In this document: in pieces, positions 14,001 through 31,677 of the stretch | How positions within the stretch are numbered: position 1 is the stretch's first letter | Layout of the letters: each line of letters opens with the position of its first letter | DNA from: Pyrodictium delaneyi | Lineage (GTDB): Archaea; Thermoproteota; Thermoprotei_A; Sulfolobales; Pyrodictiaceae | NCBI RefSeq assembly: GCF_001412615.1 | Contig: NZ_CP013011.1 | Location: forward strand, 1,380,001-1,412,000 | Reading direction: 5' to 3' | Length of the DNA: 32,000 nt | Made by a program: the position numbers and the translations under genes | Notes under the pieces: generated by a model | Seen by the model: only the letters and a program-made list of their open reading frames with translations | Told to the model about the DNA's origin: nothing | Databases searched by the model: none

Positions 14001-14072
14001 GGCTGCGCCGCCAAGCCCCCAGAGGAAGGCGTGCCGGACGGGCTTCCTCCTCTCGTACCTGCAGGCTAGCAG

Positions 14073-15658: not shown

Positions 15659-15689
15659 ATTATGAACCCCCTTGATGACCGTAGTTAAT

Positions 15690-15707
15690 CCTTATATTCC
15701 TTATATT
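15690..15707 (-). promoter_or_regulatory. tandem 9-bp duplication CCTTATATT x2 (TATA-like on the minus strand: AATATAAGG)
   Basis: Read directly from the sequence. It lies 32-50 nt upstream of the ATG at 15658. Confidence 0.4.
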
Positions 15708-15756
15708 CACCGTTAACTATAGAGTTACTTAAATTCAATTCAATTTATTATAAGAT

Positions 15757-15762
15757 AAAAAA
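15757..15762 (-). terminator. T6 run on the minus strand just downstream of the 328-aa gene
   Basis: A6 on the plus strand lies 26-31 nt after the TAG stop (15788-15790). Oligo-T tracts are the usual archaeal termination signal. Confidence 0.4.
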
Positions 15763-15787
15763 TGTCGTATCGTGCTATGCATGATTA

Positions 15788-16774
15788 CTAGAGATCACAA
15801 CATGACTGATAACCTATGCAGCAACAACATTCTACACATGCAAATATAACGCCAGCACCGCTGTATAACGCTGCAAGTACTGCCTCACTAGACACTCCAA
15901 ATACCTCTGCAAGGCATGCTATAAGACCTGCACCAGCAGTTACTATTGCACAGCCGATGACAGCGCCTAGCGCAGCTCCACATAGTATACAGTAGAGTAT
16001 GCATGATAGATCCCCATCAAGTACTATTGCTAGTCCGGCTGCGGACTTATTGTATGCCTTTAGCTTCTTTTCTACTAGTTTTGCAAGGGTGTCTAGCTCC
16101 TTAGCTATTTTATTCCACAACCATTTTGTCTCCTTAGTATCGCTAGCGGCCACCTTCTTCAGAGTCTTTGCCAGTATGGCATAGTGCTGCGAGAGCGTTG
16201 TCTCGTTCGCTATGAATACCATGTCTGCTATTGGCTGGGTCTTTTCCGGTATGGGTGCTATGTTTGCTGCCGTCATGAAGAGCTTATATTCGCCTGTCTC
16301 GGGGTCCGTTATAATCTTTGTAGCAATTGTCACGTTGTAGCTGTCGTGTTCCGCCCTGTATAGCAGCAGGTAGTACTGGTAGCTAAAGGTCTCATTGTAT
16401 AGGGTTACCTCTATGAGCTTGAGATCTCTGCTAGTTGTATTGTACTCGTAGAGCGTCTCAAAGGCTACGCTGAGGTTAGCTGACTGCAGTGGACATGTTG
16501 TGGTGGACTCGGTACAGCTTGTACAAGGTGTTATGTTTGTTAGGTCGATGTAGTTGTTTATCTCTGTTATGTTTAGTTGTAGCCTGTTGCGGTTGTCTAG
16601 CCATGCTAGTATGGCTCTTTTTACGAGGAGTTGGCTTGTGTCTGGGGTTAGAGCGTGTGCTGCTGGGGCTAGTGCGGGGGGTAGCTGTGGTAGTAGGAGT
16701 AGCGGTATGAGCAGCACTAGTGCTGTCTTCTTGAGGGTGCTGTTATTGGTATTCTGGATGGAGTGCCCCGTCAC
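15788..16774 (-). CDS. secreted/anchored sequon-rich protein with C-terminal polycysteine membrane region (low-GC island)
   Basis: Signal-like N-terminus (TALVLLIPLLLLPQLPPALAPAAHA). Eight N-x-S/T sequons in the ectodomain. The last ~75 aa hold two Gly/Ala-rich TM helices and 12 Cys (..ACVECCCCIGYQSCCDL). GGAGGTG lies 9 nt before the GTG start. Confidence 0.65.
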   Translation of the reverse strand: MTGHSIQNTNNSTLKKTALVLLIPLLLLPQLPPALAPAAHALTPDTSQLLVKRAILAWLDNRNRLQLNITEINNYIDLTNITPCTSCTESTTTCPLQSANLSVAFETLYEYNTTSRDLKLIEVTLYNETFSYQYYLLLYRAEHDSYNVTIATKIITDPETGEYKLFMTAANIAPIPEKTQPIADMVFIANETTLSQHYAILAKTLKKVAASDTKETKWLWNKIAKELDTLAKLVEKKLKAYNKSAAGLAIVLDGDLSCILYCILCGAALGAVIGCAIVTAGAGLIACLAEVFGVSSEAVLAALYSGAGVIFACVECCCCIGYQSCCDL

Positions 16775-16989
16775 TCCAGGGGCACCTCCTTCTTCTCTGG
16801 CAGGCTGCTAGTAGTTGCTGCACTCCTTATTGTACAAGACTGACCGTTGAGGAATATATCCATGTAGCGTAGGGGCTATAACATGTATCGAGATATAGAC
16901 CGGGGATCAATTTATATTATGCATGGTCTATAGCTTTTCAGCATGTATTAACGTTACACTGCTTCTCCGGGGCTTAGGCCTAATAGGCT

Positions 16990-18015
16990 TTGGCCCCCGG
17001 CGGCCTCCCGGGGGATGGTGTAGGCGCCTTGCCGAGGATTGTCGAGGAGCAGGCGGCCCGCGTAGCGGTGGCCATAATGCGGGCTGTGGGCAGCTACAGG
17101 CCCGATGCGTTTACGGACCCGCGCTACTACCCCGACGTGGGCAGCGACCCGGAGACTGTGGCGCGGTATTTCCTCGTCATGGTGGCTATGGATCACCGTC
17201 TCTCGAGGCCTGGCCGCCCCTACGAGGCGGTGGTTGAGGGGGAGAGGTTCCACGGCGCTGATCTCCTCTACAGGCTTGGCCGACTGATGCTAGACCGCGA
17301 CCCGGGCTTCTATAGCCCCGAGAGGCTAGCACGAGTGACCGTCGAGGATGTGAAGCGCTGGTTATGCGTGGGCAACGTTTGCCCGCCGGACCCCGAGGCG
17401 AGGACAGCGCTACTCCGTGACCTGGGCTCTAAGCTCCAGAGGCTCTACGGGGGCAGCGCCACCAGGCTCCTAGAGGAGAGTAGAGGGATGCTCCACACCT
17501 GGGACCCCGCAGGCCCGGGGCTAGTGGAGAGGCTAAGGGTCTTCGAGGCCTACGGTGACCCGGTGGAGAAGAAGCCGATGCTGCTCGCCAAGTTCCTGGA
17601 GAGGCGGGGGCTGCTAGAGATACGTGACCCGTGGAACAAGAGGGTCCCCGTGGACAATCATCTCACCCGTATAGCTCTCCGTCTGGGCCTAGTGGAGCTC
17701 GAGCCCAGCCTACAGAGAAAGGTCGAGGAGCAGACGGATACGACGCCCTGGGAGGACGTACTAATCCGCACAGCGGTACGGGAGGCCTGGCATCTAGTAG
17801 CCCGGTACGCAGGCGTAGACGAGTTTATCCTCGACGACCTCCTCTGGACCATGGGGAGGAAGCTCTGCATACACGACAGGCCGCGCTGCACAGGCTGCCA
17901 GGGCCACGAAATGTGTAGCCAGGGCGAGTGTATCTTCCGCAATGTGTGCCCTACAGGGCTGGGTCTGAGGAGACCATTGGAGGAGCATAGGTTCCTAAAC
18001 ACCTGGTGGTACTAG
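16990..18015 (+). CDS. HhH-GPD-superfamily-like protein with endonuclease III-type [4Fe-4S] cluster loop (putative DNA/nucleoside glycosylase)
   Basis: VPVDNHLTRIALRLGLV resembles the VDTH..R...R.G helix of Nth/MutY. The C-terminal CIHDRPRCTGCQGHEMC is exactly C-x6-C-x2-C-x5-C. The start is uncertain (TTG 16990, TTG 17029 or ATG 17077). Confidence 0.65.
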   Translation: MAPGGLPGDGVGALPRIVEEQAARVAVAIMRAVGSYRPDAFTDPRYYPDVGSDPETVARYFLVMVAMDHRLSRPGRPYEAVVEGERFHGADLLYRLGRLMLDRDPGFYSPERLARVTVEDVKRWLCVGNVCPPDPEARTALLRDLGSKLQRLYGGSATRLLEESRGMLHTWDPAGPGLVERLRVFEAYGDPVEKKPMLLAKFLERRGLLEIRDPWNKRVPVDNHLTRIALRLGLVELEPSLQRKVEEQTDTTPWEDVLIRTAVREAWHLVARYAGVDEFILDDLLWTMGRKLCIHDRPRCTGCQGHEMCSQGECIFRNVCPTGLGLRRPLEEHRFLNTWWY

Positions 18016-18186: not shown

Positions 18187-18651
18187 TTACCATGCTATTG
18201 TTATTCCCAGCTTTGAGGCCACGTAGGCTAGGTCCCTATCACCCGTGGCTATAGGCGCTCTATGCTTCTGCGCTAGCACTATCACTGTTGAGTCTACTAT
18301 GCTTAGCCTCCTTCTCTTCAGACCAGGGTCCTCCGCATCACGGAGTAGACTGTCCCCCTTATGCTTTATCTCGGCCGCTTTCACCCAGTCGATTAGGTCC
18401 AGGTTCTCTACCCTGAAGTACCGGGTTAGGAAGGTCACGACCTCCTCTAGCGACGTAAGGACGGGTATCCTGCCTCTACGCCAGTGGACGATATACTCGT
18501 AAGCCACTGTCACCGGTAGCAGCCCCACTATACGTCCTCTCCTAACGTCTTGGAGTAGCTGTGACGCTTTTTCGCCCAACTCCCCGAAAGCCATTGCTAG
18601 GAGCACGTAGGTGTCTACTATGACCTTTCTAGGCTTCTCTTCCTCCACCAC
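18187..18651 (-). CDS. vapC: PIN-domain ribonuclease toxin VapC
   Basis: KVIVDTYVLL.. near the N-terminus and ..IVDSTVIVLAQ...IATGDRDL carry the acidic PIN residues. It overlaps the upstream AbrB gene by 34 nt. A GGAGGAGG motif precedes the GTG. Confidence 0.85.
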   Translation of the reverse strand: MVEEEKPRKVIVDTYVLLAMAFGELGEKASQLLQDVRRGRIVGLLPVTVAYEYIVHWRRGRIPVLTSLEEVVTFLTRYFRVENLDLIDWVKAAEIKHKGDSLLRDAEDPGLKRRRLSIVDSTVIVLAQKHRAPIATGDRDLAYVASKLGITIAW

Positions 18652-18875
18652 GCCTCCTCCTCTCCATCGAGTTCCTCCTCGGCTGCTTCTGCCGAGCCTC
18701 TGCAGCAGCCCCAGACACGCTCCCAGAGATCTAGGGGCCGGAGCACTATCTCTCCATCCCTGGTCTCCACTTCTAGTAAAGAGCCCTCCACGAGGTGTAG
18801 GGCCTCCCGTACCGCCTTAGGCAGCACTATGACCCCTTTCCTGCCTACGCGGACAACTAGGCCCACTGGTCGCAC
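18618..18875 (-). CDS. vapB: AbrB/SpoVT-family antitoxin VapB
   Basis: VRVGRKGVIVLPKAVREALHLVEGSLLEVETRDGEIVLRP is a swapped-hairpin AbrB/MazE fold signature. Confidence 0.8.
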   Translation of the reverse strand: MRPVGLVVRVGRKGVIVLPKAVREALHLVEGSLLEVETRDGEIVLRPLDLWERVWGCCRGSAEAAEEELDGEEEAWWRKRSLERS

Positions 18876-20084: not shown

Positions 20085-20324
20085 GTGGCAGGCAGTATAG
20101 ACGGCCTCCTGGAGAAGCTCCGGGGCCTCGGGCTAGAAGCTGCACCAGAGGATGGCCGGCTACGTATACGCGGCGGGCGGGGCTTCAGCCTAGCAGACCT
20201 ACCCCGGGAACTCCTAGAGGAGCTAAAGACCTTCGAGGAGATAGTCGTGGAGGCGCCGGAGGGCTACTACTTCTACTTCAGAAGAAAGGATGTCGAGAAG
20301 CTGCTCGAGATAAAGAATGGCTAG
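20085..20324 (+). CDS. small hypothetical protein
   Basis: 79-aa ORF with protein-like composition. GAGGAG lies just upstream of the GTG. Its TAG stop shares the tetranucleotide CTAG with the stop of the convergent chelatase gene. Confidence 0.5.
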   Translation: MAGSIDGLLEKLRGLGLEAAPEDGRLRIRGGRGFSLADLPRELLEELKTFEEIVVEAPEGYYFYFRRKDVEKLLEIKNG

Positions 20325-22324
20325 CCGGCGGAGACTACGCGGGCTTTTAGCAGCCTTGCTAGCAGGCCCGTATAGTCTAGCAGCCTCATGCTCTTAGCAC
20401 TCTTCGTGTCGTATATGACTGCTTCTACCCCTAGCCGGCGTAGCTCTGCCGCAAGGGCCACAAGGTCGTCCTCGATGCTATCCGATAGGGGTACGTTGGC
20501 CCTGCCATCGGTGACCAGGTGGAGCACGATACGTGCACCCGGCCTCTTTAGCCGGAATAGCCGAGCCAGCCTGGCCGCCTCTAGTAGTGCCGCGGGGAGC
20601 GGAGTAGAACCCCCTACAGCTATGCCGTCTATAGCTTCTATGAGTCTTCTATAGCTGCGTGTAGGCTGTACTATCGTCTGGGCGCTGCTGCCCTGGAAGG
20701 CTATGAGGGCTGGCCAGGCTCGCTCAACGTAGCTGCTACGGGCTAGTCCCTCGGCTATAGCCTTCGCCGCAGCGAGCCGATTCTCAGCGTACATGCTGCC
20801 ACTGGCATCTAGCAGGATTATGTGTAGGCTCTGAGGCTTCTCACGCCGCAGCCTAACCCGGACATCCCAGTGAGTCGGTTTTGCAGCTCCGCGCTGTAGT
20901 GCCGCACGGAGAGTCGCATAGAGGTCTACATCCCATGCTTCTAGCCCGCGGAGGGGCGGCATAGAGTCTACAGGGTATCCTTGTGCACCGGGGCGTAGCC
21001 GGTAGCTGCGCCTTCCATGCCCTAGGCTTCGCCGTTTGCCTCCCAGTCTGCTCGGCGGAGACATCGGGAACAATGAGGCCTGGGGCTCGGCATTAACGTC
21101 GCCGAGCCGGGCTAGAGGCCTCATGCTGGACGATGCTCCCCCACCACCTATCTCAGCGCCCCCGCCTGGCTCTCCGCCGCTATTGCCGCCTCCCCCTGTG
21201 CCGCTGGCAGCCACTTGCTCGCCGCCGTGCTGTGCCCCTGCCTCGGCGCTTCTACTGCCCTGGGGCTCTGGCTTGTCTTCCACATGGAGCTGGTCTAGTT
21301 GTTGGAGGAGCTTCTGCAGCTTTTGCTCAGGGTTCTCGAAGGGGTGTGAACGTAGCCTATGCGGCAGCGCTAGCTCCATAGCCCTCTTGACGTCGTCGAG
21401 CGATACTCTCTCGCGGCCGTCTAGTGCTGCTAGAGCCCTGGCCGTGCGTACGACTGTTATCTCGGCCCTATGGGTTCTTATCCCGAGCTTGACCACGGTC
21501 TCTGCTATGAGGCGTAGGAGGCTCCGCGGCATCTCAACCCTCGACAGTAGCTCGCGAGCCCGGATTATCCTCTGGCGTAGCTTCTCCTCGCTCTCCTCGA
21601 ACCGCTTCATAAAGCCTATCGGGTCACGGTGGAACTCCTCGACCCTCTCTACTATCAGCATCCTCTCCTCCGGGTCCTGGGAGGCCATGACCTCTACGTA
21701 GAGGCCGAAACGGTCTAGGAGCTGAGGCCTTAGCTCGCCCTCTTCCGGGTTCATGCTGCCGACTAGTATGAAGCGAGCTGGGTGCCGGACCGAGAACCCT
21801 TCCCTCTCCACGGTGTTCCAGCCGGTGGCCGCGGCGTCCAGTATAATGTCGGCTATGTAGTCGTCGAGGAGGTTAACCTCGTCTATGTAGAGTATATTCC
21901 GGTTAGCCTCTGCCAGCAGCCCAGGCTTGAAGACGACGCGGCCCTCTCGCAGCGCGGCCTCGACATCGATGCTCCCGACGAGCCTATCAACGCTTATGCT
22001 TAGTGGCAGGTCTATGACCCTCATAGGCCTCCATTCTATCTCCGGCTTCTCACCACGTAGCCAGGCCTCGTAGTGGGTGTCGCACATCTCCCTGGGATCG
22101 AAGGGGTTGCAGCCGTAGGGGCACCCCTTGACAACAGGTATCTCCGGCAAGACCTGGGCTAGGCTGCGGACGAGCGTGGTCTTCCCCGTGCCCTTATCGC
22201 CTACTAGCAGTACGCCGCCTATACCGGGGTCTACTGCTGCTGCTAGTAGCGCCGTCTTAGCCTTCTCCATCCCGACTATAGCGGTGAACGGGAAGTATAT
22301 CCTCCTAGCCCGCCTAGCGTCCAT
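20321..22324 (-). CDS. fused ChlI/ChlD-type chelatase subunit: AAA+ ATPase, Gly/Pro-rich linker, vWA (MIDAS) domain
   Basis: Walker A is GDKGTGKTT and Walker B is LYIDEVNLL. BchI-like Cys insert CPYGCNPFDPREMC. Linker GGGNSGGEPGGGAEIGGGGASS. vWA with LLDASGSM. The start overlaps the end of cobN by 11 nt. Confidence 0.9.
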   Translation of the reverse strand: MDARRARRIYFPFTAIVGMEKAKTALLAAAVDPGIGGVLLVGDKGTGKTTLVRSLAQVLPEIPVVKGCPYGCNPFDPREMCDTHYEAWLRGEKPEIEWRPMRVIDLPLSISVDRLVGSIDVEAALREGRVVFKPGLLAEANRNILYIDEVNLLDDYIADIILDAAATGWNTVEREGFSVRHPARFILVGSMNPEEGELRPQLLDRFGLYVEVMASQDPEERMLIVERVEEFHRDPIGFMKRFEESEEKLRQRIIRARELLSRVEMPRSLLRLIAETVVKLGIRTHRAEITVVRTARALAALDGRERVSLDDVKRAMELALPHRLRSHPFENPEQKLQKLLQQLDQLHVEDKPEPQGSRSAEAGAQHGGEQVAASGTGGGGNSGGEPGGGAEIGGGGASSSMRPLARLGDVNAEPQASLFPMSPPSRLGGKRRSLGHGRRSYRLRPGAQGYPVDSMPPLRGLEAWDVDLYATLRAALQRGAAKPTHWDVRVRLRREKPQSLHIILLDASGSMYAENRLAAAKAIAEGLARSSYVERAWPALIAFQGSSAQTIVQPTRSYRRLIEAIDGIAVGGSTPLPAALLEAARLARLFRLKRPGARIVLHLVTDGRANVPLSDSIEDDLVALAAELRRLGVEAVIYDTKSAKSMRLLDYTGLLARLLKARVVSAG

Positions 22325-23948
22325 GCGTTCCGCTCACCTTCCGGGCTAGCTTGAGTGATGTGCGTATCCACTTGAGTGCCTCTCCGGCTGCCCGGCTAGC
22401 CTCCGTCCAGGCGGGGACGTCGCTGCTCGTGTAGACCCAAACCTCACCGGCCTGGGCCATACCGGAGGAGAACTCGCCCTCCAGGAGCGACTCGACCTCG
22501 ATCCGCGCCCTCTGGAGCACCCTGAGGGCCTCGGGGCTGGGCCTCCATAGCCCTCTCTCGGCCGCCTCGAGGAGGCGGCGGGTTATCTCCTCGAGCGCAT
22601 AGGGGTTGTTCTCCCTCAACCACCTCCGGTTATCCTCGTCGCCCAGGTACGTCAGTGTTATCTGGTCCCATACCTTGTCCGGGACCGCTCGGGTCGTCGC
22701 GTGCCACCCGTAGAGGTTCTGTATCTTCTTCATAGCCTCGGCTGCGCCGCGATAGCCATGCCTCTTCATGGCCTCGATCCAGCGGGGGTTCAGAATCTTG
22801 GCGTAGGCGACCCGCAATAGCTCGTCCCGCATCTCCCGGAGCCGGGGGCGGAGGGGCTCGCGGGTATCCATGACGAAGTTTAGCGGGTCACGTCCCCTAA
22901 CAGTCTTGACGAGGACGTGCATACCGCCCTGGTAGGCAAAGTAACAGCAGCAATTGATGGGATCATGCTCATCGCTCATATGGTTCCTAGCTACTACGTC
23001 TATCCTAGAGGCTTGGAGAACCAGCGCCCTAGCCGCCGCGGGCGAAGTCTCTCCTCGTAGCCTCCGGGTATAGGGGTGGGCGCTCCACTGGAGCCACGTC
23101 CTAGCCAGGTCCTCCTCGCTACGCCACGCAGATGCGAATATCGCGTAGTTCACCCCGGCACCATAGGCGCCCGGCGGGGCGCTCCACACACGTACACGTG
23201 CTAGCTCCCTTGCCTCGTCCTCTGTTGCGCCACTCTCGCGGAGCTTCTCGAGGAACTCGAGGTAGTGGCGGCGCGGATAGTTCAGCTCAGGAGGCTCATC
23301 CAGCGCTACAACCTTCTCCACTGCCTCGTCTATCAGGCTTATGTAGTTGGGCAGTGTGTCACGGACAATACCGCTTATACGCACAGTCACGTCTATCCTT
23401 GGCCGCCCCAGCTCCCGGAGCGGTATGACCTCTACGCCTCTCACCCTGCCACTAGCATCCCAGACTGGCCGGACACCAAGCAGGTAGAGTATTCGGGCAA
23501 GCTGCTCACCGTCAGCCTTATAGGCGTCTATACTCCAGAGAACCTCCCCCACAGTCTCCGGATAGCGGCCTAGCCTCCTCCGGGCCTCTTCGAGGAGTTG
23601 CCTAGCAGTCTCGACTCCGAGCCTCCAGGCCGCCCGGGTCGGGACACCAGTAGGGTCCACTGCGTAGAAGTTCCGGCCCGTCGGGAGCACGTCTATCTTG
23701 CCGCGGGTCAGCGAGCCTGAGGGACCTGGCTCGACGTAGCCGCCCGAGAGGCCAGTAAGCAACCCCTCCATTTCGTGGCGGCCGCTACTTCTATAGAGCC
23801 TTGCGAGTACAAGCGCCTTCCTGAAAGCCTCTAGAGTCTCTGGCTTCAAGGCCTTATGCCCCCTCCCGCGCAGAATCAACAACAATGCCTTGCAGGAGCT
23901 CGGGCGTGAGTTTCTCGGGCTCAACTCCCATGGATATGAGCTTCTCAA
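22314..23948 (-). CDS. cobN: cobaltochelatase-type large subunit CobN, C-terminal portion (frame-split)
   Basis: LLTGLSGGYVEPGPSGSLTRGKIDVLPTGRNFYAVDP and the downstream CobN blocks are present. Homology only begins about 30 codons after the nominal start, i.e. in the region overlapping the upstream fragment. Confidence 0.85.
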   Translation of the reverse strand: MRSSYPWELSPRNSRPSSCKALLLILRGRGHKALKPETLEAFRKALVLARLYRSSGRHEMEGLLTGLSGGYVEPGPSGSLTRGKIDVLPTGRNFYAVDPTGVPTRAAWRLGVETARQLLEEARRRLGRYPETVGEVLWSIDAYKADGEQLARILYLLGVRPVWDASGRVRGVEVIPLRELGRPRIDVTVRISGIVRDTLPNYISLIDEAVEKVVALDEPPELNYPRRHYLEFLEKLRESGATEDEARELARVRVWSAPPGAYGAGVNYAIFASAWRSEEDLARTWLQWSAHPYTRRLRGETSPAAARALVLQASRIDVVARNHMSDEHDPINCCCYFAYQGGMHVLVKTVRGRDPLNFVMDTREPLRPRLREMRDELLRVAYAKILNPRWIEAMKRHGYRGAAEAMKKIQNLYGWHATTRAVPDKVWDQITLTYLGDEDNRRWLRENNPYALEEITRRLLEAAERGLWRPSPEALRVLQRARIEVESLLEGEFSSGMAQAGEVWVYTSSDVPAWTEASRAAGEALKWIRTSLKLARKVSGTHGR

Positions 23949-26244
23949 GCGTCTTAACGGCTATTCGGTGGAGTACTTCCCGGGCCTTCCTGTTGCTGAC
24001 GCCGAGCCTCTTGCAGAACCCGCTTGGTTCTACTAGGATGCTGTCATAGTCTACGCCTAGTATGTCAGCTACAGCCCTCTCTATCGACACCCACTCACCC
24101 GTATCAGAAGCCATTACCGCTGCTACATGCTCTGCGAGCTTCCTAGGCTCACTAGGGGTCTCACCGAAGACGTGGAGCCCGTTCTCGACAGCGCTAGCCC
24201 GTACAGCCGTGAGGAGATCGTGGAGCCGGTCAACGGTCCTCTCGGGGCTCCCCTGCCCCACGTCGAGGCCGCGTTTACGCGCCTCCTCGAGTATCTGCTC
24301 GTACACTATCTTTGCACGCGCCTCCTCGCCGAGGCTCCTGGCTCGGCTATACTCCTCGAGTAGCCTATCGAGCTCCTCGAGAGCAGCATCAGCCTTCATG
24401 AAGGGCGGGTGGACGTGATCCACTATGACGCTGTAGCCCCTCCTCTTAGCTATAACACCCTCCATGGGGTTCGACACGACGTAGATGTAGAGGAAGGGAA
24501 CATCGTCTATACTTATTTCGGGCCAGCAGCTTGGCGACAGCCCCACGCCCTTGCCGGGCCGGAACTCGAGGGTTCCATGGGTCCCGACGTGTAGTATGAG
24601 GTCGGCGCGGAAGACCCGGGTTACCCACCTGTATGCGGCTAGCCACTGGTGGGGAGGCGGTATACGCGGGTTATGGAGTATCTTACAGACCCTCCCGTCG
24701 CATGCTGCGCCGGCGCAGCCGAACTTGGGCTGGGGCATCACGACTACGTTGCCGAAGCGTAGCCCGGGTATGACGAACTTGCCGTCGTAGACTGCGCCGG
24801 CGAATATGCGCTGGACCTTGCCGGACAGTATGTCGCGGGGGTCACCCCACCACTTTAGCATCTCACGACGAGCCTGCTCCGGGAGCTCCATGAACCATTC
24901 CATGTAAGTCTCTAGGTCCACCATGCCTACGTAGCCGCCTCGCCGGACGATCTCCTCTACTGGTGTCCAGCGAAACTCGCTCGTAGCCCTCTTCTGGAGC
25001 ATGAGCTCTACGAGCTCCTGGCCGTTAGTGGGGAGCCTGTCGCTGCCGAGATCGTAGCCTAGGCTGCGGAGCCGGACTAGGAGCCGGGCCACACTCTCTG
25101 GCGCGTCTAGCCCAAGGCCCATCCCTATGGAGGCCTCGACTTGCCGGCACGGCGGGTTGTTGAGCACTATGGCTACTCGTCGCTCGCCCGGCTTCTTCCT
25201 GCGGAGGGCTACCCAGCGCTTCACCCTCCTAGCTACGAGCCTCATATGGGGGTGGTAGGGCTTGTAGAGCTTGTAGTCCTCAACCCTAACAGAGGTACTA
25301 GCCAGTATGGGCTCTATTGCGCCATCAACCTCAGGCATCACGACCTCGTATACCTGCGTGAGGTAGCTAACGCCTTGAGGATTCGACAGCCACTCGTTCT
25401 CGTCCTGGTAGAACTCGCGGATAGGCTTGAACACGGGGACTCCTAGGCGCTGGAGCAGCTCGACCCCATGAGCCACCCTAAACCTGTCGTTGACGCTCAT
25501 GCGACTATATCTTCCGTGGTCTAGGAGGAAGAAGCTAAGCATGTCTATGAGCGCGTCTATCCGGGGCCCCCAAGGCCCGAGGAAGAAACGACGTATAGTG
25601 TCCTCGGCGCTCGGCTCACCGGTCAACTCGTTCCTATAACCTGTCGTGAAGACCGGGATTACACCCAGCCCCTCCGCTTCCAGCGCCTCTATGAGCGCTT
25701 CGAGGGGCTTACGGTTGCCGTACAACCATAGGCTGCGGTAGTAGAGTATACCAACGAGAGGGCGGCCGGCCATGCCGTAGCTGCGTAGATATTCGTCTAC
25801 GTCCTCGTATACTCCGAGCCTTGGGTGCCATACACCGTGCCAGGGTAGCTCCTCTGGGGGCGGAGGCTCCTCTTCGACTATGCCTGCCAGGTATAAGAGG
25901 TAGAGGAGGAGACTGTGGATGTTCTCTTCGCCTCCTGCCTTGAAGTACATTATGACCGTGGATGCTGCTTCTTGGCTCCCGCGGGCTAGGTGTGCGTAGT
26001 TCTCCGATGCAGACACTATGAGCTGTGCACTGGACTCGGCTATAGCCTTCTCAACTTCTTCTGGGAGCGTATGAGTGTAAAGGAATACCACCTTGGACCT
26101 ACGTATCGCCTCTACGTAGCTTGGCGCTGTATCGGGGGAGAGTATCTGAACGAACTGGCCAGCGCCGCCTAGCCTTGACTTGAGCTTACGTAGCAGAGCT
26201 ATTACCGGGCTATGGTAGCCGATTATCAGCGTTACAAGCGTCAA
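23854..26244 (-). CDS. cobN: cobaltochelatase-type large subunit CobN, N-terminal portion (frame-split)
   Basis: 796 aa including ILHVGTHGTLEFRPGKGVGLS (the CobN/ChlH HxGxHG..E.LPGK block). It ends at TAA 23854-23856, directly after a G5 run (C5 at 23859-23863 on the plus strand). TTG start. Confidence 0.85.
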   Translation of the reverse strand: MTLVTLIIGYHSPVIALLRKLKSRLGGAGQFVQILSPDTAPSYVEAIRRSKVVFLYTHTLPEEVEKAIAESSAQLIVSASENYAHLARGSQEAASTVIMYFKAGGEENIHSLLLYLLYLAGIVEEEPPPPEELPWHGVWHPRLGVYEDVDEYLRSYGMAGRPLVGILYYRSLWLYGNRKPLEALIEALEAEGLGVIPVFTTGYRNELTGEPSAEDTIRRFFLGPWGPRIDALIDMLSFFLLDHGRYSRMSVNDRFRVAHGVELLQRLGVPVFKPIREFYQDENEWLSNPQGVSYLTQVYEVVMPEVDGAIEPILASTSVRVEDYKLYKPYHPHMRLVARRVKRWVALRRKKPGERRVAIVLNNPPCRQVEASIGMGLGLDAPESVARLLVRLRSLGYDLGSDRLPTNGQELVELMLQKRATSEFRWTPVEEIVRRGGYVGMVDLETYMEWFMELPEQARREMLKWWGDPRDILSGKVQRIFAGAVYDGKFVIPGLRFGNVVVMPQPKFGCAGAACDGRVCKILHNPRIPPPHQWLAAYRWVTRVFRADLILHVGTHGTLEFRPGKGVGLSPSCWPEISIDDVPFLYIYVVSNPMEGVIAKRRGYSVIVDHVHPPFMKADAALEELDRLLEEYSRARSLGEEARAKIVYEQILEEARKRGLDVGQGSPERTVDRLHDLLTAVRASAVENGLHVFGETPSEPRKLAEHVAAVMASDTGEWVSIERAVADILGVDYDSILVEPSGFCKRLGVSNRKAREVLHRIAVKTLEKLISMGVEPEKLTPELLQGIVVDSAREGA

Positions 26245-26263
26245 CCAGTGCGCCCTCCTCTTG

Positions 26264-26302
26264 GTGCACCGTACACTTCCGGAAAGTGCACACGTTTAAA
26301 TA
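26264..26302. promoter_or_regulatory. divergent promoter elements: GTGCAC (26264-69), TTCCGGAA (26277-84), GTGCAC (26286-91), TTTAAATA (26295-302)
   Basis: Read directly from the 97-bp cobN / propeller intergenic region. The TATA-like box is 40 nt from ATG 26342 and about 50 nt from TTG 26244. Confidence 0.4.
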
Positions 26303-26341
26303 CTTGCAGCGTAGCCGCCTCGGGTACACCTGGGAGACACC

Positions 26342-27991
26342 ATGGAGGCCCCGAAGCTTGCCACAATACTGGTCATCGTACTCGCTGTAGGCGTAGCTAT
26401 GGGCTACGTAGTGGCCAACACTTCCAGGGCTGGAGTACCCTCAACTAGTACAGCTGGGACGGTCACTGTAACGAGTACTGTCACCGAGACAAAGGCAGTA
26501 ACGGAAACAGTCACCTCGATCCGAGAAGTCGTAAAGACGCGCCTATTCCGGCCCGAACTCGTAGCGGACATACTGGTGGCTGACAGAAGCTCACTCCCAC
26601 CCAGCAGCTTCGTACAAGTAGATACGTGGAGGAGCCATGCACCATACACTCTGGTAGTCTTCTCCCCCGACTCTAGCATGTTCGCCGTAACCGTCACGAG
26701 GTACGTGGAGGACAAACCCGTTAGCGAAGTCCGCGTCTACACGATTTACGGCGAGGAGCTGTGGAGGTTTGAGACAGGGAGTGGTTACATCCGTTCACTA
26801 GCCTGGAGTAGCGACGGCAAGATACTCTTCGTTGGAGAGAACAGCATCGAAGGCACCCTGGTAGCCCTCGACGCCTCTACCGGCGAGCAGCTCTGGAGCT
26901 ACAAGACTAGCAGCGAGCTCGGCACCAGCGACCCCAGCCAGCCGAGGTACTACTGGCCCACGATCTACAGTATAGAGTACAGCGACGGTAAAGTATACGC
27001 CTCTGCTTGCCGGACTGTGAAGAAGCCGAAGTACGGGAAGATATGTGCCATATACTGCTTTGACGCTAGGGATGGGAGCCTCGTCTGGAGGTACCCCAGG
27101 GAAGGCTTCATAGACACAATGGTGCCCGAGATAAAGCTGAGCCCCGACGGCCACTACCTCGCCGCAGCCACATGGTACTACAAGGGGGAGCAGTGGAAGG
27201 GCGGTGTCCTCCTTCTACTAGATACTACATCCGGCAGCCTTGTCGCCAGCTTTGACCCAGGTACCCGTAGCCCCTTCCGCTGGGCTGGTAGCTGGAGCGG
27301 CGTAGACTGGCTCGACGAGAAGCACATAGCCTACGTCCTAGACGATGGTAGGCTCTATGTGCTAGAGGCACCGAGCCTCAATACGGTAGAAGAGGTCGAC
27401 GTGACATCCCCGCTGCCCGCGCTCGTGCTCCCCAGGAAGGCTAACACCACCGAGGAGGGCTATGTCTACGCCTTTAGCGGCTACAACAGGGTAGTAAAGA
27501 CGCCTACCGGTCACACATTGCTGCTCGTGAGGACTAGCAATACATACGGAGTAACGGCTGCCGGTAAGAGCGCTAAACCAACCATCAATCATCCTGACGC
27601 GAACTCGATATTCATATACGAGTGGCGCGACGGAGGACTAGCATTCATCGCAAAGTACCCCTTGAGGGGCAAGCCGAGCTACGAGAACTGGGCCAGCTAC
27701 TCCCCAGAGCATGGTCTACTCGCAGTCCCTGTAGGCCACGACTACGTAGCTAGAAGCACAATCTACACGGGCATCTACATACTGAACCTCACAGACATCA
27801 ACGCTGTGAGGAGCGGCGAAGCGCTAGCGCTGACCATCAAACCTCCTGCTGATAGCGGCGTCGTCATCGGCGGCGGTATAAGCCCAGACGGCGCCAGAGT
27901 AGTAGCCATAACATACCCAGTTAACGCCGGTACTGCTGACAGTCCCGTATTCATCGGCGACTACCGTATCCTCATCTACGGGATAGACTAG
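26342..27991 (+). CDS. membrane-anchored extracellular beta-propeller protein (PQQ/BamB-like repeats) with Thr/Val-rich stalk
   Basis: N-terminal TM LATILVIVLAVGVAMGYVV, then TSTAGTVTVTSTVTETKAVTETVTS. Repeated ..DG..(L/V)(V/A)..(D)..(G)..LW(R/S)(F/Y).. units (LVALDASTGEQLWSYKT, CFDARDGSLVWRYP). Confidence 0.8.
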   Translation: MEAPKLATILVIVLAVGVAMGYVVANTSRAGVPSTSTAGTVTVTSTVTETKAVTETVTSIREVVKTRLFRPELVADILVADRSSLPPSSFVQVDTWRSHAPYTLVVFSPDSSMFAVTVTRYVEDKPVSEVRVYTIYGEELWRFETGSGYIRSLAWSSDGKILFVGENSIEGTLVALDASTGEQLWSYKTSSELGTSDPSQPRYYWPTIYSIEYSDGKVYASACRTVKKPKYGKICAIYCFDARDGSLVWRYPREGFIDTMVPEIKLSPDGHYLAAATWYYKGEQWKGGVLLLLDTTSGSLVASFDPGTRSPFRWAGSWSGVDWLDEKHIAYVLDDGRLYVLEAPSLNTVEEVDVTSPLPALVLPRKANTTEEGYVYAFSGYNRVVKTPTGHTLLLVRTSNTYGVTAAGKSAKPTINHPDANSIFIYEWRDGGLAFIAKYPLRGKPSYENWASYSPEHGLLAVPVGHDYVARSTIYTGIYILNLTDINAVRSGEALALTIKPPADSGVVIGGGISPDGARVVAITYPVNAGTADSPVFIGDYRILIYGID

Positions 27992-28023
27992 AATCAGGCC
28001 ATTTTCCTGGGGATGAGGACGGC

Positions 28024-29520
28024 TTGGCCCAGTCCACTCGCGTCACAGTATTTTTGCTAGTACTTCTCGCCACCTCCATTATCCCGGTCCCTGTATACGC
28101 CCATGCCCACAGCTGTAGCCCCCAAGTCGACATAGCCGTCGAGCTTCCACTGGGTCAGCAGCATCGGTACAACAGCTCCCTCGAGCTCCCTCTTCCGGGC
28201 CGCTACCTCTTCTGGCTGATCGTAGAGTCGAAAACGGGTAAGCCCGTTGAGTACCAGATTAGCATCGTGGTTGACGGCGATGCTCGCCTCGAGAGCCTCT
28301 CTGGCCCGCTTCAAGGCGTGCTATCTGGCTATGGCGACCGGAGCATAGCCTATGGCATCGTTAACGCTGGGCCGCAGGGGTTCAAGCTAATAGCTATGCT
28401 TGAGGCTGAGGGCTGCACCCGGTCTATCGTACTCAGTGTAGCCGAGTCGGGGATCGAGGCCCAGTTTAGCCGCGTCCATCTACCTGTAGACCATCTTGGT
28501 AACGAGGATCCGCGTAGGGAGCCCTTCACCCTCGTCGAGTCTTATCCATCGCTCCTCGGCCGCCTCCTAGGCGCGAGCAATAGCCGTGTGCTTCTCGGCT
28601 ACATGCTTGTCTGCATAGAGTCTAGCCAGCCCTTTGACTTCCTAGTAGTTGGCGGGCTCTACGATGCTGGGGGCCGTCCGGCCCCGCTAGCAAGCACCGT
28701 ACTCGAGCCCGGTACCGGAACCTCATACCTTAGGACTACGATATCGACAACCAGTTGTGCAAAAAGCAAGTGTAGTGGCTGTGCAATCATACCTCTATGG
28801 CTACTAGAGGATATAGCTCCACCTGGCGTCTATAGGCTGGTACTGAACCTCTACATACCCGGCTCGGATCGGCCAATCGCTGTATACGAGCACAACGTCT
28901 ACATAAGGCTGTTGAGCTACGGCGACATAGGCGTCGCCGCTATTGTTGCAGGTCTTGGTGTTCTCGTGCTACCGCTTCTTGCGAGGATAAGTGATAGTAA
29001 GAGATTAGCGTATATGGCCCTCACTGGGGCCTCGCTTACGGCGCTCTCTAGGCTTATAGGCGGCGTAGTATTCCGCTTATCGAGCGTCCTAGGTCCCTTT
29101 GACTGGATAGTCTACGGGCCTATAACTAGCGGCCTCTACTACGGGCTCCTGGCTGCATGCCTAGCTGCAACCGGCGAGCCCATGGTCGCTGCGGGCGCCG
29201 TGCTTGTAGAGTGGCTTCTCTCGAGCCTCATCCTGGGTTCTGGTAACCTTGTGTTATCAGCGTTCTGGGCGTTTACCACCCTCTTCGTTGTGGCTGCTGC
29301 CACTTATGCAGCTAGGGTTACGGATCTGAGGCTTCTGCCGGTCTATTTCGCGGCTGCGAAGGCTCTGGACAGCTATGTAGATATTAACATCTACGCGTAC
29401 GCCTATCGACTATACTATGCAGGCTGGTATATAGCTGTCTATAGTGCTGGTATGGCCCTCTATGCGCTCCTCGGCTCAGCAGCCGTGACAAGAATGGTGT
29501 CTAGCCGTGCTAGAAGCTAA
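28024..29520 (+). CDS. membrane protein: signal peptide, ~270-aa extracytoplasmic domain, 6-7 C-terminal TM helices (candidate ECF S-component-like module)
   Basis: N-terminus VTVFLLVLLATSIIPVPVYAHA. The hydrophobic C-terminal ~200 aa are rich in Tyr, Ala and Gly. The stop overlaps the ATPase start by 14 nt. Confidence 0.7.
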   Translation: MAQSTRVTVFLLVLLATSIIPVPVYAHAHSCSPQVDIAVELPLGQQHRYNSSLELPLPGRYLFWLIVESKTGKPVEYQISIVVDGDARLESLSGPLQGVLSGYGDRSIAYGIVNAGPQGFKLIAMLEAEGCTRSIVLSVAESGIEAQFSRVHLPVDHLGNEDPRREPFTLVESYPSLLGRLLGASNSRVLLGYMLVCIESSQPFDFLVVGGLYDAGGRPAPLASTVLEPGTGTSYLRTTISTTSCAKSKCSGCAIIPLWLLEDIAPPGVYRLVLNLYIPGSDRPIAVYEHNVYIRLLSYGDIGVAAIVAGLGVLVLPLLARISDSKRLAYMALTGASLTALSRLIGGVVFRLSSVLGPFDWIVYGPITSGLYYGLLAACLAATGEPMVAAGAVLVEWLLSSLILGSGNLVLSAFWAFTTLFVVAAATYAARVTDLRLLPVYFAAAKALDSYVDINIYAYAYRLYYAGWYIAVYSAGMALYALLGSAAVTRMVSSRARS

Positions 29521-30853
29521 GATAGAGCGTGTAGCATACCCTAGGGGCAGAATCGGTCTCGAGAACGTAGAACTGAAGCTGGAGCCGGGCACAGTACTGC
29601 TCGTAGCCGGGCCTAGCGGCTCGGGGAAGAGTACACTCCTCAAGACACTCGCCGGGGTCGTACCATTCATAGAGGAGGCGAGCGTCGAGGCCGAGATACG
29701 GGTTAGAGGCGAGAGGTTAGACCAGCTGCCGCCGGGGCGTAGACCCATAGCATACTTGCCACAGGATCCAGGAGAACTGGCCCTAGGCGAGTACGGCGCC
29801 GAAGTCCTCCTATTCTACGGGGCTAAGCCCCGCCTACCTCTCGCCAATCTACTCGATAGGAGGATTTACGAGATGAGTAGTGGGCAGCTCCAGCGCCTAG
29901 TATTGTCAGCCGTCACGGGGCGAGATAGAGACATCGTACTTCTAGATGAGCCCCTTGCGAACCTCGATGCAGAGTCCTCGTCTCAGGCATACAATACTAT
30001 CCGGGAGCTTATCCGCAACGGTGTCTCAGTAGTTATCGCTGAGCACCGTCTCTCACGGGTCGCGGGCCTCGCCTCAGAGATGCTCGTACTGAGTAGAGGC
30101 AGGCTGGTGTTCCGCGGAAGCCCCGAGGAGGGGCTCGAGGTGGCTGAGCGTGTTGGCGCACGCCCTGTACGTGTCAGCGGTGTCTCGCTCGAGAAGCCAT
30201 GTAGCTGTGTTGAAGGCGAGCCCGTAGCTGGGCTCAACAAGGTCTACGTGGGATATAGTGGCAGGCTTGTCCTCCAGGGACTGGACTTTGTTTGCCCTCG
30301 TGGCTCGCTGATGGCAGTCGTTGGGCCTAACGGCTCTGGGAAGACTACTCTGTTGAAGTTGTTAGCCGGGCTCATGAGGCCTTGGAGGGGCCGCGTGTGG
30401 TACAGCTGGGGCCGCTGGGACTGGAGAATGATAGGCTATGTTCCATCGTCGCCGTGGCTGTCGTTCCTCGAAGAGTCGGTGCTCGACGAAGTAGCCTCGG
30501 TGGCACACCGTGCTGGCAGCACTACGCCCGTAGAGGATGCTATCGAGGCATTGGAGCTTCTCGGGCTAAGGGGCTATGAGGGCGAGAAGCCCTGGAGGCT
30601 TAGCGGCGGCGAGATGGCTAGGCTAGCCGTGGCCCGGGCTATCGTGAAGAAGCCTAGGCTTCTCCTCCTGGACGAGCCTCTACGGGGCCAGGATAGACGT
30701 AGTGCGGAGGCGGTTCTGGAGGCTGCCCGGCTTGTCGCCCGGCTTGGCGGCTGCTCGGTGGTTGTGACGCACGATCTCGAGTTCCTCTCGAAGTTTGACG
30801 CTGTGTTTAGACTTGACAAGGGGTGCTACCTGGATTGGCCGAGCAGCTCGTGA
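29507..30853 (+). CDS. tandem (A-A fused) ECF/CbiO-type ABC ATPase
   Basis: Two complete cassettes are present. The first has GPSGSGKST / SSGQLQR / VLLDEP and the second has GPNGSGKTT / LSGGEMAR / LLLDEP. Confidence 0.9.
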   Translation: MLEAKIERVAYPRGRIGLENVELKLEPGTVLLVAGPSGSGKSTLLKTLAGVVPFIEEASVEAEIRVRGERLDQLPPGRRPIAYLPQDPGELALGEYGAEVLLFYGAKPRLPLANLLDRRIYEMSSGQLQRLVLSAVTGRDRDIVLLDEPLANLDAESSSQAYNTIRELIRNGVSVVIAEHRLSRVAGLASEMLVLSRGRLVFRGSPEEGLEVAERVGARPVRVSGVSLEKPCSCVEGEPVAGLNKVYVGYSGRLVLQGLDFVCPRGSLMAVVGPNGSGKTTLLKLLAGLMRPWRGRVWYSWGRWDWRMIGYVPSSPWLSFLEESVLDEVASVAHRAGSTTPVEDAIEALELLGLRGYEGEKPWRLSGGEMARLAVARAIVKKPRLLLLDEPLRGQDRRSAEAVLEAARLVARLGGCSVVVTHDLEFLSKFDAVFRLDKGCYLDWPSSS

Positions 30854-31677
30854 GGCTATCCCGTAGCTATGTAGCGCGTAGCCGGGGACCCTTAGCGAGG
30901 CTGAGACCCGGCACGAGGTTAGCCTATGCTTTGCTCGTATCTGTGTCCAGTATAGTGTTTGGCCGTATAGAAGCTCTCGCCCTGCTAGCTGTTGCTGGTG
31001 TAGCGTTCTTCGCGGCATCGAGGCCGGGGCCGCGTAAAGTCGCCTCTGTGGCCCTCCTCGCCTCTATAGTAGTGTGGAGCATCATGGTCAGCCAGGCGCT
31101 GTTCTACCAGGGGACGCCGAGGACCCCAATAGCGGTCATAGTGCCCTCCAACACGCCTGTCATAGGCGCGCTAACGGGCGGCGTATACGTCTACTATGAA
31201 GGTGTCCTCTATGGTCTACGGCAGAGCCTCCGGGCACTAGCCTGCCTCTTTACGGGCGCGGGGCTCGCCGCATCTATGAGCGTACTAGACATCTATACAC
31301 TACTGGCCGGACACCGTAAGCTACTCGTCGTGCTCCTTGCCGCCCTCCGTGGACTCGAGAAGCTCCTAAGAGAATTAGAAGAGAGCTTAGCCTCAGCACG
31401 GCTCTCGGGGGCCCGACTAGGGCTCTCTAGGCTCCACCGGCTGGTACCACTAGTAGCAAGACGCATAGAATCCATGTCCGTGTCTGTCGCCCTAGCCATG
31501 GAGTACTCGACCCCGGTACGTGTGTACAGCGCGTGGAGCACGGTGGCTGTGCTGCTACTAGCAGCCACCATAGCACTTGCTCTGCTATACACTATCTACA
31601 TGCTATACTCGGTTGGCATCGTGCATGACTCATGGCTGCATCGGCTCTACGAGATATTGAGGCTCTGGATGGCATAG
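30823..31677 (+). CDS. EcfT/CbiQ-like transmembrane coupling component
   Basis: 5-6 TM helices plus a cytoplasmic ..LEESLASARLSGARLG.. segment resembling the Ala-Arg-Gly coupling helix. A more likely start is GTG 30850, forming a GTGA overlap with the ATPase stop. Confidence 0.7.
   Translation: MLPGLAEQLVRLSRSYVARSRGPLARLRPGTRLAYALLVSVSSIVFGRIEALALLAVAGVAFFAASRPGPRKVASVALLASIVVWSIMVSQALFYQGTPRTPIAVIVPSNTPVIGALTGGVYVYYEGVLYGLRQSLRALACLFTGAGLAASMSVLDIYTLLAGHRKLLVVLLAALRGLEKLLRELEESLASARLSGARLGLSRLHRLVPLVARRIESMSVSVALAMEYSTPVRVYSAWSTVAVLLLAATIALALLYTIYMLYSVGIVHDSWLHRLYEILRLWMA

Follow-up and report, generated by a model that had tools for sequence, protein, structure and literature searches.

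What does a CobN-type chelatase do back to back with a membrane transporter? The question is raised by a 32-kb window of Pyrodictium delaneyi DNA (the whole stretch analysed, to whose positions all coordinates without a locus number refer), in which a minus-strand operon for a CobN/ChlD-type chelatase and a plus-strand operon for an energy-coupling factor (ECF)-type transporter are transcribed away from each other. A computational follow-up of an earlier note on this DNA (hereafter the original prediction), using sequence and predicted structure only, indicates that the locus is most likely a cobalt or corrinoid acquisition system. The reading that we favour, with a confidence that falls just short of even, is that the two divergent operons form a B12-regulon unit for the uptake and insertion of cobalt. 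The plus-strand operon would encode a dedicated (group-I-like) ECF-type importer, composed of an S-component bearing Ig-like domains, a fused double ATPase and an EcfT-like coupling protein, and an anchored propeller would presumably capture or present the substrate, which would be cobalt, either as free Co2+ or within a small complex. The minus-strand operon would encode an ATP-driven class I chelatase with its large subunit in the form of CobN-N and CobN-C, for which a single D-type subunit would supply both the AAA+ motor and the vWA/MIDAS bridge. This chelatase would insert the imported cobalt into a tetrapyrrole, at an active site lined by Cys-Cys-Cys instead of His/Asp. The transport direction, the cobalt substrate, the co-regulation from a shared promoter and the identity of the tetrapyrrole are what we infer from the gene content and its context.

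An open reading frame (ORF) map and Pfam and NCBIfam scans of the window proteins defined the two operons. On the minus strand a 667-aa ORF (20321-22324) overlaps the upstream CobN ORF by 11 nt (22314-22324), and the CobN start at 26244 is separated by a 97-bp gap from the propeller start at 26342, the first of four packed plus-strand genes (26342-27991, 28024-29520, 29507-30853 and 30823-31677) that are spaced, in order, by a 32-nt gap, a 14-nt overlap and a 31-nt overlap. This arrangement is as the original prediction described it, and the scans bore out the protein types it had named, with matches to CobN-Mg_chel and AAA+/AAA_lid_2/VWA, a propeller of the PQQ_2 type, a pair of ABC_tran domains and a weak signal for CbiQ/EcfT. 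Its remark that the 32 kb hold no other cbi, cob or tetrapyrrole gene also stands, as none was found by family scans and gene look-ups.

Whether the two operons belong together was judged from their occurrence elsewhere. A pattern-based scan of one genome per species found 80 further loci (cited by L numbers), distributed over Thermoproteota and bacteria including Negativicutes, Deltaproteobacteria/Desulfobulbaceae, Poribacteria, Hydrogenedentota and others. By tblastn with seven window proteins, the propeller is present in 66 of these and EcfT in 51, with the tandem ATPase adjoining the S-component in most. In 22 of the 80 the module has a class I chelatase gene no more than 10 kb away (CobN in 16, ChlD/ChlI alone in 6). 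The divergent layout of the window recurs in L003 and in P. occultum (L088); in L004 the transporter genes are followed by an opposed chelatase operon; a single co-directional run of propeller, S-component, tandem ATPase, EcfT, CobN and ChlD genes is found in L009, L012, L020, L022 and L050; and L006 has the co-directional order ChlD, S-component, tandem ATPase, EcfT, propeller, CobN C-half, CobN N-half. That archaea and bacteria alike keep the linkage despite such rearrangement argues strongly for a functional connection. The adjacency of chelatase and transporter was seen in P. occultum, three other Pyrodictiaceae-like assemblies and several Thermoproteota metagenome-assembled genomes (MAGs), and also in Firmicutes, Deltaproteobacteria and other bacteria. 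The proposal of a functionally linked capture-import-insertion unit for a metal or tetrapyrrole is supported by this retained linkage and by the lack of CbiM and CbiN, no S component of that type having been detected by Pfam or NCBIfam among the scanned window ORFs.

The contrary view would be that the propeller and the 498-aa protein encoded after it are unrelated surface proteins and that the ABC and EcfT genes belong to a generic transporter. It may appeal to the 58 of 80 loci without a chelatase gene within 10 kb, and to some 18 Poribacteria loci (e.g. L023, L033, L034 and L087) that have an S-component-like gene (660-716 aa) and a propeller only, with no ABC, EcfT or chelatase gene nearby. 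Against it, the linkage survives rearrangement in both domains, single-operon forms included, and adjacency within 10 kb was observed in 27% of the loci, as compared to about 1% expected by chance for a family with one to three copies per genome. A paired promoter motif is, moreover, common to the divergent promoter and to a second CobN gene of P. occultum. It is therefore extremely improbable, in our estimate, that these genes are mere neighbours. In the Poribacteria loci the pair adjoins an ECF (extracytoplasmic function) sigma factor, a BNR/Ycf48-like protein and a dockerin-tagged protein, and may use a shared ECF module encoded elsewhere or have another role.

A further membrane protein accompanies the module in some genomes. 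A polytopic Gate (nucleoside-recognition) protein of about 320 aa, with a weak domain match, is encoded beside the module or chelatase operon in eight loci (L004 11196-12170; L010, L014-L016, L018, L021 and L055) and also beside the BtuFCD-type importer of Pyrobaculum neutrophilum (L090 2669-3565); tblastn found none in the window. It may be CbtX (COG3366), the cobalt-transporter candidate of Rodionov et al. 2004, predicted by comparative genomics (PMC545781).

The likely field of the substrate emerges from the surroundings of the module in other genomes. In eight bacterial loci (L027, L060, L071, L064, L059, L073, L044 and L077) the module is preceded on its own strand by a cobalamin riboswitch (Rfam RF00174; 76-122 bits), and these riboswitch-led modules belong to Negativicutes and one Desulfobulbaceae genome. 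In L027 the module operon has its first gene 67 nt downstream of one riboswitch, and a second riboswitch directly precedes the linked unsplit CobN gene. In Sporomusa (L071) a riboswitch is followed, in this order, by the genes for a signal-peptide CbiK, the S-component, the ATPase, EcfT and the propeller. The Negativicutes loci also hold CbiD, CbiG and TP_methylases; in a Thermoproteales MAG (L010) genes for a CbiET-like protein, a methylase, CbiG and another methylase are followed by the propeller, S-component, tandem ATPase and EcfT genes; and CobQ/CbiA-like and CobA genes are found nearby in L016. Riboswitch and cbi context of this kind was used in the comparative-genomic prediction of cobalt transporters (PMC545781), and the riboswitch control and cbi-operon embedding of the homologues narrow the substrate to the cobalt/cobalamin field.

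Within this field, cobalt itself is favoured because of the riboswitch control together with the embedding in de novo cbi operons, because a group-I ECF organisation is common to the module, CbiMNQO and NikMNQO, and because accessory extracytoplasmic parts have precedents in metal ECF systems. CbiK partners the module in eight loci, and since the module thus pairs with two unrelated classes of cobaltochelatase (CobN/ChlD and CbiK), the substrate they share would be cobalt and not the macrocycle. The CbiK encoded first in the riboswitch-led operon of Negativicutes has an N-terminal signal peptide (L071 8362-9393; also L066, L069, L077, L084 and L086) and is, by this prediction, a periplasmic class II chelatase; a cytoplasmic CbiK is also present in some CbiK loci (L060 15684-16538, L077 2004-2807). 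In Anaerospora (L060 597-6537) a further cobalamin riboswitch precedes an operon for the B12-dependent methylmalonyl-CoA mutase and MeaB, and the nearest gene upstream of the module, on the other strand, encodes an SbmA/BacA-type ABC transporter.

The same neighbourhoods bear on the main alternative, corrinoid or tetrapyrrole salvage, in which the ECF module would import a cobamide, an incomplete or metal-free corrinoid or an oxidised precursor, to be metalated, re-metalated or otherwise handled by CobN/ChlD. We regard it as possible but rather unlikely. Several bacterial neighbours would suit it: the TonB-dependent receptors and BtuF-like proteins that diderms encode close to the module (in 30 and 9 loci, respectively), a CobA/BtuR adenosyltransferase gene after the propeller gene in Anaerospora (L060), and the secreted CbiK at the head of the riboswitch-controlled operon in Negativicutes. 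Salvage would also accommodate the homologues of nitrogenase-like tetrapyrrole reductases that one bacterial locus and one archaeal locus encode within the module operon or next to it. In L027 (12075-15648) these are a NifH-NifD fusion and a NifD/K-like gene under the cobalamin riboswitch, and in L010 (1659-3870) a NifH-like and a NifD-like gene; the NifD-like proteins of the two loci cluster together, and the genes may encode an uncharacterised nitrogen-fixation-like (NFL) tetrapyrrole reductase tied to B12 metabolism. Other features of these operons speak against salvage. The module occurs within cbi operons for de novo synthesis, a typical setting for cobalt transporters; separate BtuB/BtuF operons with riboswitches of their own adjoin it in Anaerospora and Sporomusa; and it pairs with either CbiK or CobN, whose macrocycle substrates differ. 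Imported cobamides, besides, already hold cobalt, which leaves the chelatase without an obvious job, and metal-free corrinoids are rare in nature.

The transporter operon of P. delaneyi opens with the gene for an anchored extracellular beta-propeller (26342-27991, plus strand; 549 aa), comprised of an N-terminal transmembrane (TM) helix, a Thr/Ser/Val-rich stalk and the propeller, which matches generic PQQ/WD40 models only (PQQ_2, E=1.7e-14). It has a full-length BLASTP match to a protein of the Sporomusa operon (E=3e-20), and R337, H417 and P418 are invariant in the family. The second gene (28024-29520, plus strand) encodes the 498-aa protein, which we assign to a new S-component family and which consists of a signal peptide, two Ig-like beta-sandwich ectodomains, a linker TM helix and a six-helix core. 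No match to it was found in Pfam, in NCBIfam or by a profile search of the PDB. An AlphaFold2 (AF2) model of the whole protein (pLDDT 84.8) shows the signal peptide, two beta-sandwich domains and seven helices; the ectodomain fold matches the tandem Ig-like domains of S-layer and adhesin proteins, and Ig-like domains dominate the fold search with the whole protein. When the TM domain was modelled alone (residues 296-498; pLDDT 89.2, pTM 0.86), the single structurally meaningful PDB match was 5edl, annotated as "S-component of ECF transporter" (TM-score 0.60/0.62, rmsd 4.1 A, 180 columns, probability 1.00, but E=0.07). On this model the TM core is predicted to be an ECF S-component fold, the extra helix after the ectodomain restoring the N-in topology of the six-helix S core.

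The S-component family has as its hallmark an invariant YRLYYAxWY in the last helix, and an exhaustive hidden Markov model (HMM) search of 1.84 billion proteins recovered 303 cluster representatives (161 with E<=1e-10); the Sporomusa member is named "hypothetical protein" in RefSeq. A word-indexed search had suggested a Pyrodictium-only family of eight proteins, which was a sensitivity artefact, the wider family being found by the pattern-based genome scan and the HMM search. The NCBI gene call for the P. delaneyi S-component is 400 aa and starts about 98 codons late (missing 28024-28317), and the public annotation places an 85-aa minus-strand gene (28057-28314) over the missing N-terminus. 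Homologues of 483-509 aa back the 498-aa form with its TTG start and signal peptide.

The two remaining genes complete the importer. The tandem ABC ATPase (29507-30853, plus strand; 448 aa), equivalent to EcfA-EcfA', has two ABC_tran domains, and both nucleotide-binding domains (NBDs) are intact, with Walker A motifs GPSGSGKST and GPNGSGKTT, signatures MSSGQ and LSGGE, and Walker B LLDEP twice; it scores 173 bits on ECF_ATPase_2 and 152 bits on cbiO, with ECF_ATPase_1 in the same range, all of them below cutoff. The EcfT/CbiQ-like coupling component (30823-31677, plus strand; 284 aa, 280 aa in the assembly) has no Pfam match and reaches TIGR02454 (ECF_T_CbiQ) with E=4e-7 and 30 bits, against a cutoff of 111.8. 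It matches by BLASTP (E=4e-20) a Sporomusa protein that is named EcfT in RefSeq and scores 92 bits on Pfam CbiQ, and its orthologues in P. occultum and L006 match Pfam CbiQ weakly. The S-component fold match, the EcfT homology and the two intact NBDs agree with the description "atypical ECF-type transporter" given by the original prediction. The extracellular parts are indeed non-canonical, being Ig-like ectodomains and a propeller, alongside an S-component outside Pfam and NCBIfam.

The chelatase operon departs from its earlier description in that cobN, taken to be one gene, is two ORFs of 796 and 511 aa. The N-half (23854-26244, minus strand; 796 aa) contains the head, neck and domains III-IV (Pfam CobN-Mg_chel positions 3-661) and keeps the superfamily HxGTHG motif of domain III as HVGTHG at residues 552-557, and the C-half (22314-23849, minus strand; 511 aa, TTG start) contains domains V-VI (positions 676-1089). 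At the junction a TAA stop (23854-23856) and 4 nt precede the C-half start, with a GGGAGGGGG stretch just 5' of this second start. The N-half aligns to residues 185-716 of the CobN of Mycobacterium tuberculosis (Mtb; 7c6o) and 210-832 of 4zhj, and the C-half to residues 805-1229 of 7c6o and 924-1349 of ChlH. The break accordingly falls between ~716 and ~805 in Mtb CobN and between ~832 and ~924 in ChlH, and separates the head, neck and domains III-IV from domains V-VI.

A frameshift or pseudogene origin of the two ORFs was ruled out on several grounds. An annotated P. delaneyi assembly (GCA_002194565.1, contig NCQP01000003.1) also calls two genes, with a C-half of 511 aa. Division into two genes is shared by three Pyrodictiaceae-like loci (L003, L004 and L006), P. 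occultum (L088), P. neutrophilum (L090) and Archaeoglobus veneficus (L091), and the half-gene junctions in the relatives are overlaps or gaps of 1-11 nt, of the translational-coupling type. The C-half lengths are uniform: the best 120 of 3451 matches, which represent Pyrodictium, Ignisphaera, Pyrobaculum, Archaeoglobus, Desulfurococcaceae, Nitrososphaerales and Thermococcus, are almost all 485-527 aa long. In L006 and L011 the order is swapped, with the C-half gene upstream of the N-half gene, which makes a sequencing frameshift impossible as the cause. Judged from these genomes, the two-gene form of CobN is natural. Unsplit members of the same clade (1190-1324 aa) occur in L009, L012 and most bacterial loci, and CobN as two polypeptides (about 800 and 505 aa) is found in many archaea plus two MAGs labelled bacterial (L020 and L022), each half being labelled merely "cobaltochelatase subunit CobN" in the databases.

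The presumed motor of the chelatase is the ChlD/BchD/CobT-like D subunit (20321-22324, minus strand; 667 aa), with an N-terminal AAA+ domain, a Gly/Pro-rich linker and a C-terminal vWA domain with MIDAS. The original prediction was right about the AAA+ and vWA/MIDAS parts; what it saw as a ChlI/ChlD fusion is ordinary D-type architecture from end to end. Pfam matches are AAA_lid_2, Mg_chelatase, AAA_5 and VWA_2, the motifs are Walker A GDKGTGKT at residue 42, Walker B ILYIDE at 144 and MIDAS DASGS at 506, and the protein aligns with TIGR02442 over residues 11-664 (622 bits, missing the cutoff of 779) and with TIGR02031 over residues 20-644. A separate ChlI (I/S) gene was found neither in the window nor in the loci of archaeal relatives, and the bacterial loci carry ChlI (~347 aa) plus ChlD. 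Genotypes with CobN and ChlD only are known in prokaryotes (PMC9227772). A MoxR-vWA-propeller conflict system was considered for this locus and rejected, as the AAA+/vWA protein has the full length of a ChlD and its gene adjoins those of CobN; the bpMoxR match was faint only (E=0.0035).

As to what the large subunit does, its halves score best against solved CobNs (CobN 336 bits, ChlH 262, HmuS 246), which supports a CobN-like chelatase. The active-site region is nevertheless distinctive. The motif EHDPINCCCYFAYQGGM at C-half residues 294-310 (22920-22970) belongs to the clade consensus DE[HY]D..[NG]CCC[YH][FY]..GG, which is nearly invariant in the archaeal stand-alone C-halves and the full-length CobNs adjoining the module in bacteria, CCC being kept by some 126-137 of the 145 sequences in the alignment. 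The third Cys of the triad falls at the position of the domain V His H1209 of HmuS and of a ChlH His, and the two solved CobNs carry DSDD at this position, so that the domain V metal-ligand residue (His in ChlH and HmuS, acidic in the CobNs) is not present in the window C-half. The ChlH His is reportedly H1174 (Adams et al. 2020), consistent with a 20-residue tag offset in the alignment. On these alignments, the CCC triad seems to mark a separate, anaerobe-associated CobN clade.

The replacement of a His/Asp ligand (ChlH His, HmuS H1209) by CCC may be taken to indicate a thiophilic metal, and with it a different reaction, i.e. a nickel or iron chelatase (for sirohaem or alternative-pathway haem) or an HmuS-like dechelatase harvesting the metal of an imported metallo-tetrapyrrole that the transporter would supply. 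P. delaneyi is an iron reducer, which would suit this reading. Methanogen CobN-like proteins were once proposed to be nickel chelatases (PMC3087415), and HmuS is a precedent for a superfamily member that runs in reverse beside an importer, its H1209 coordinating the active-site cation within the motif LSLDHxxEFMGG (PMC12583661). In P. neutrophilum (L090 13422-16985) and L021 (158-2314), moreover, a second, unsplit CobN paralogue with an HmuS-type DLDHYYEFLGG shares the locus with the split CCC-type CobN and a single ChlD. The window protein itself lacks LSLDHxxEFMGG, with INCCCYFAYQGGM at the aligned position, and for both of its halves taken together CobN is a better match than HmuS or ChlH. 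An ATP-driven D subunit would suit an insertion enzyme, whereas the published HmuS activity needed NADH and a membrane fraction (PMC12583661). The riboswitch and cbi context of the bacterial and Thermoproteales homologues, finally, points to cobalamin and not to haem or nickel. We thus consider another metal or a reversed reaction quite improbable. The co-occurrence of the two CobN paralogues hints at paired enzymes with different roles. A second unsplit CobN gene in P. occultum (L088 1-1421), beyond EcfT, is cut at the locus end, so that its motif is unreadable, and no second CobN paralogue was found within 10 kb in P. delaneyi.

The cobalt uptake-and-insertion reading has to be weighed against a number of observations that do not favour it, several of which lend themselves to salvage. 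Rfam found no riboswitch in the window, in the two archaeal loci tested or in seven bacterial CobN-linked loci among those tested. The curated equivalog cutoffs for EcfA, EcfT, CobN and ChlD are all missed; for CobN the two halves reach 659 (N-half) and 539 (C-half) bits on NF004646 against 1468, and 357 and 425 bits on TIGR02257 against 822. If the Gate protein is CbtX, a second cobalt importer would be redundant. In the extracytoplasmic components and the S core no conserved multi-His or multi-Cys metal site was found. The invariant residues of the S-component are Tyr, Arg, Trp, Gly and Pro, and those of the propeller one His, one Arg and several Trp, a pattern no less suited to an organic ligand than to a bare ion. 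In P. neutrophilum and A. veneficus the place of the module beside the split CobN is taken by BtuFCD/FecCD-type importers with Peripla_BP_2 proteins. Importers of this type normally carry chelates, namely B12, haem and siderophores. Hyperthermus butylicus, the only surveyed member of the Pyrodictiaceae, is without B12 biosynthesis and has BtuFCD homologues and a B12-dependent ribonucleotide reductase (PMC2667541); if P. delaneyi is like it, cobalt import for de novo synthesis makes little sense.

Salvage would draw on the same points. H. butylicus, several Pyrobaculum and the Thermococcales use B12 without making it (PMC2667541), stand-alone CobN C-halves are common in these orders, and salvage has been proposed for the haloarchaeal CobN/ChlID (PMC8305020). 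The putative capture apparatus is large, with a conserved anchored or periplasmic propeller in 66 of 80 loci and two ectodomains on the S-component itself, and without a conserved metal-ligand cluster it is reminiscent of Bacteroides, where the surface beta-propeller BtuG and the Ig-like/globular BtuH (PMC8941943) capture corrinoids ahead of the transporter. By analogy, the propeller and Ig-like domains might capture the substrate as BtuG and BtuH do. In its fullest form this argument would have the module and the Cys-lined split CobN constitute a new corrinoid/tetrapyrrole salvage route shared by archaea and bacteria, in which the chelatase metalates, re-metalates or de-metalates, a claim that we hold to be unlikely.

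For the cobalt unit as we read it, the divergent promoter region (26245-26341, strand not assigned; 97 bp) offers a possible means of joint control. It contains GGTGCACC (26263-26270) and GTGCAC (26286-26291), about 17 nt apart and just upstream of a TATA-like TTTAAATA box (26295-26302). A paired GTGCAC-N(10-30)-GTGCAC recurs in the divergent promoter of P. occultum (L088 7511-7539), where two GGTGCACC copies lie inside a long palindrome with TATA-like arms, and directly upstream of the second CobN gene of this species (L088 1422-1449). Beyond P. occultum the paired pattern was found in one other locus only, of 92, and the single octamer is not significant in the window (two found; 9 of 100 shuffles give two or more). 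Given the small sample and the non-significant octamer the paired motif is a lead and not a finding, and can be regarded as a candidate shared operator for both operons.

The rest of the window encodes MoaE, a helix-turn-helix (HTH) protein, EamA, a phosphoesterase, an FAA hydrolase, an Fe-S protein, V4R, a metallo-beta-lactamase, a ZIP permease, a phosphoribosyltransferase, a hypothetical block, AGOG, a PIN/MazE pair and a SAM hydroxide adenosyltransferase. The hypothetical block (12200-17000) is low in G+C, falling to 0.44-0.48 at 15-17 kb, and includes a TumE-domain protein. A prophage or mobile-element origin of this low-G+C island (12.2-16.8 kb) was considered and rejected, there being no PHROG matches, flanking repeats or tRNA. 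The PIN-domain toxin and MazE-like antitoxin pair (18187-18865, minus strand) lies between the AGOG-like and SAM hydroxide adenosyltransferase genes.

Among known importers, CbiMNQO, NikMNQO and NikKMLQO are the closest to the module, being likewise dedicated group I ECF systems with CbiQ-like T and CbiO-like ATPase genes of their own, and CbiMNQO and NikMNQO are likewise linked to cobalamin genes and chelatases, with a B12 riboswitch in bacteria. Precedents for extracytoplasmic or small membrane accessory parts are CbiN, NikN, NikK and NikL, as was reportedly described in 2006 by Rodionov and co-workers. The module differs in having neither CbiM/NikM nor CbiN/NikN and instead an unrelated S-component with two Ig-like ectodomains and a linker helix; the window ATPase is a fused tandem, unlike that of CbiMNQO, and the conserved accessory is a beta-propeller of about 550 aa. 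Since the N-terminus of the S-component is a signal peptide, a CbiM-type N-terminal metal-binding motif is impossible. ECF-CbrT is also a B12-regulon ECF importer, but a profile search against the PDB detected no sequence similarity to it. Unlike BtuG and BtuH, the capture-like domains of the window are fused to or encoded with an ECF transporter and not a TonB-dependent one.

The chelatase resembles CobNST and ChlHID/BchHID in full-length large-subunit homology, the HxGTHG motif and a D subunit with AAA+, linker and vWA/MIDAS, and differs from them in the split of the large subunit between domains IV and V, in CCC at the domain V ligand and in the lack of a separate I/S motor. HmuS of the Bacteroidota hmu operon and BtuS1/BtuS2 of B. 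fragilis are, likewise, CobN-superfamily proteins encoded with a substrate uptake system, a precedent in which such pairings serve acquisition rather than de novo biosynthesis; in contrast to HmuS, the window protein is without LSLDHxxEFMGG, is closer to CobN and is encoded with an ATP-driven D subunit. In Desulfovibrio a periplasmic CbiK(P) and btuCDF are co-transcribed under a B12 element (PMC545781), a riboswitch-CbiK-importer logic that the Negativicutes modules share, and IhtABCDE of P. gingivalis can be grouped with it as a related known system. Here, however, the importer is a new ECF module and not BtuCDF, and the P. delaneyi locus has no CbiK and a cytoplasmic CobN/ChlD instead.

With its parts in known superfamilies, ECF transporters and class I chelatases, the system is not categorically new. 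No description of the module was found in the literature searched, although related remarks in Rodionov et al. 2003 are possible. Four features appear to be undescribed there: an S-component family with Ig-like ectodomains and an obligate propeller partner, the systematic pairing of an anaerobe-type CobN with this importer or with BtuFCD-type ones, a natural two-gene CobN with permuted order, and a CCC triad at the active-site position.

The role of archaeal CobN homologues has been stated to be unclear (PMC12583661), and what CobN does in anaerobes and archaea without the late-cobalt-insertion pathway is an acknowledged question (PMC12583661; PMC8305020), which this locus makes testable. A salvage route of the kind outlined above, if true, would explain the presence of "aerobic-type" CobN genes in strict anaerobes and B12 auxotrophs, as well as the secreted CbiK, the nitrogenase-like reductases and the HmuS-like paralogue in some of the clusters. 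If the substrate is cobalt, the module would be a widespread missing cobalt transporter for B12 reconstructions in Thermoproteota, Negativicutes and Deltaproteobacteria; a corrinoid or precursor as the substrate would mean new salvage chemistry. Either way, some 300 "hypothetical" protein clusters would gain a functional context.

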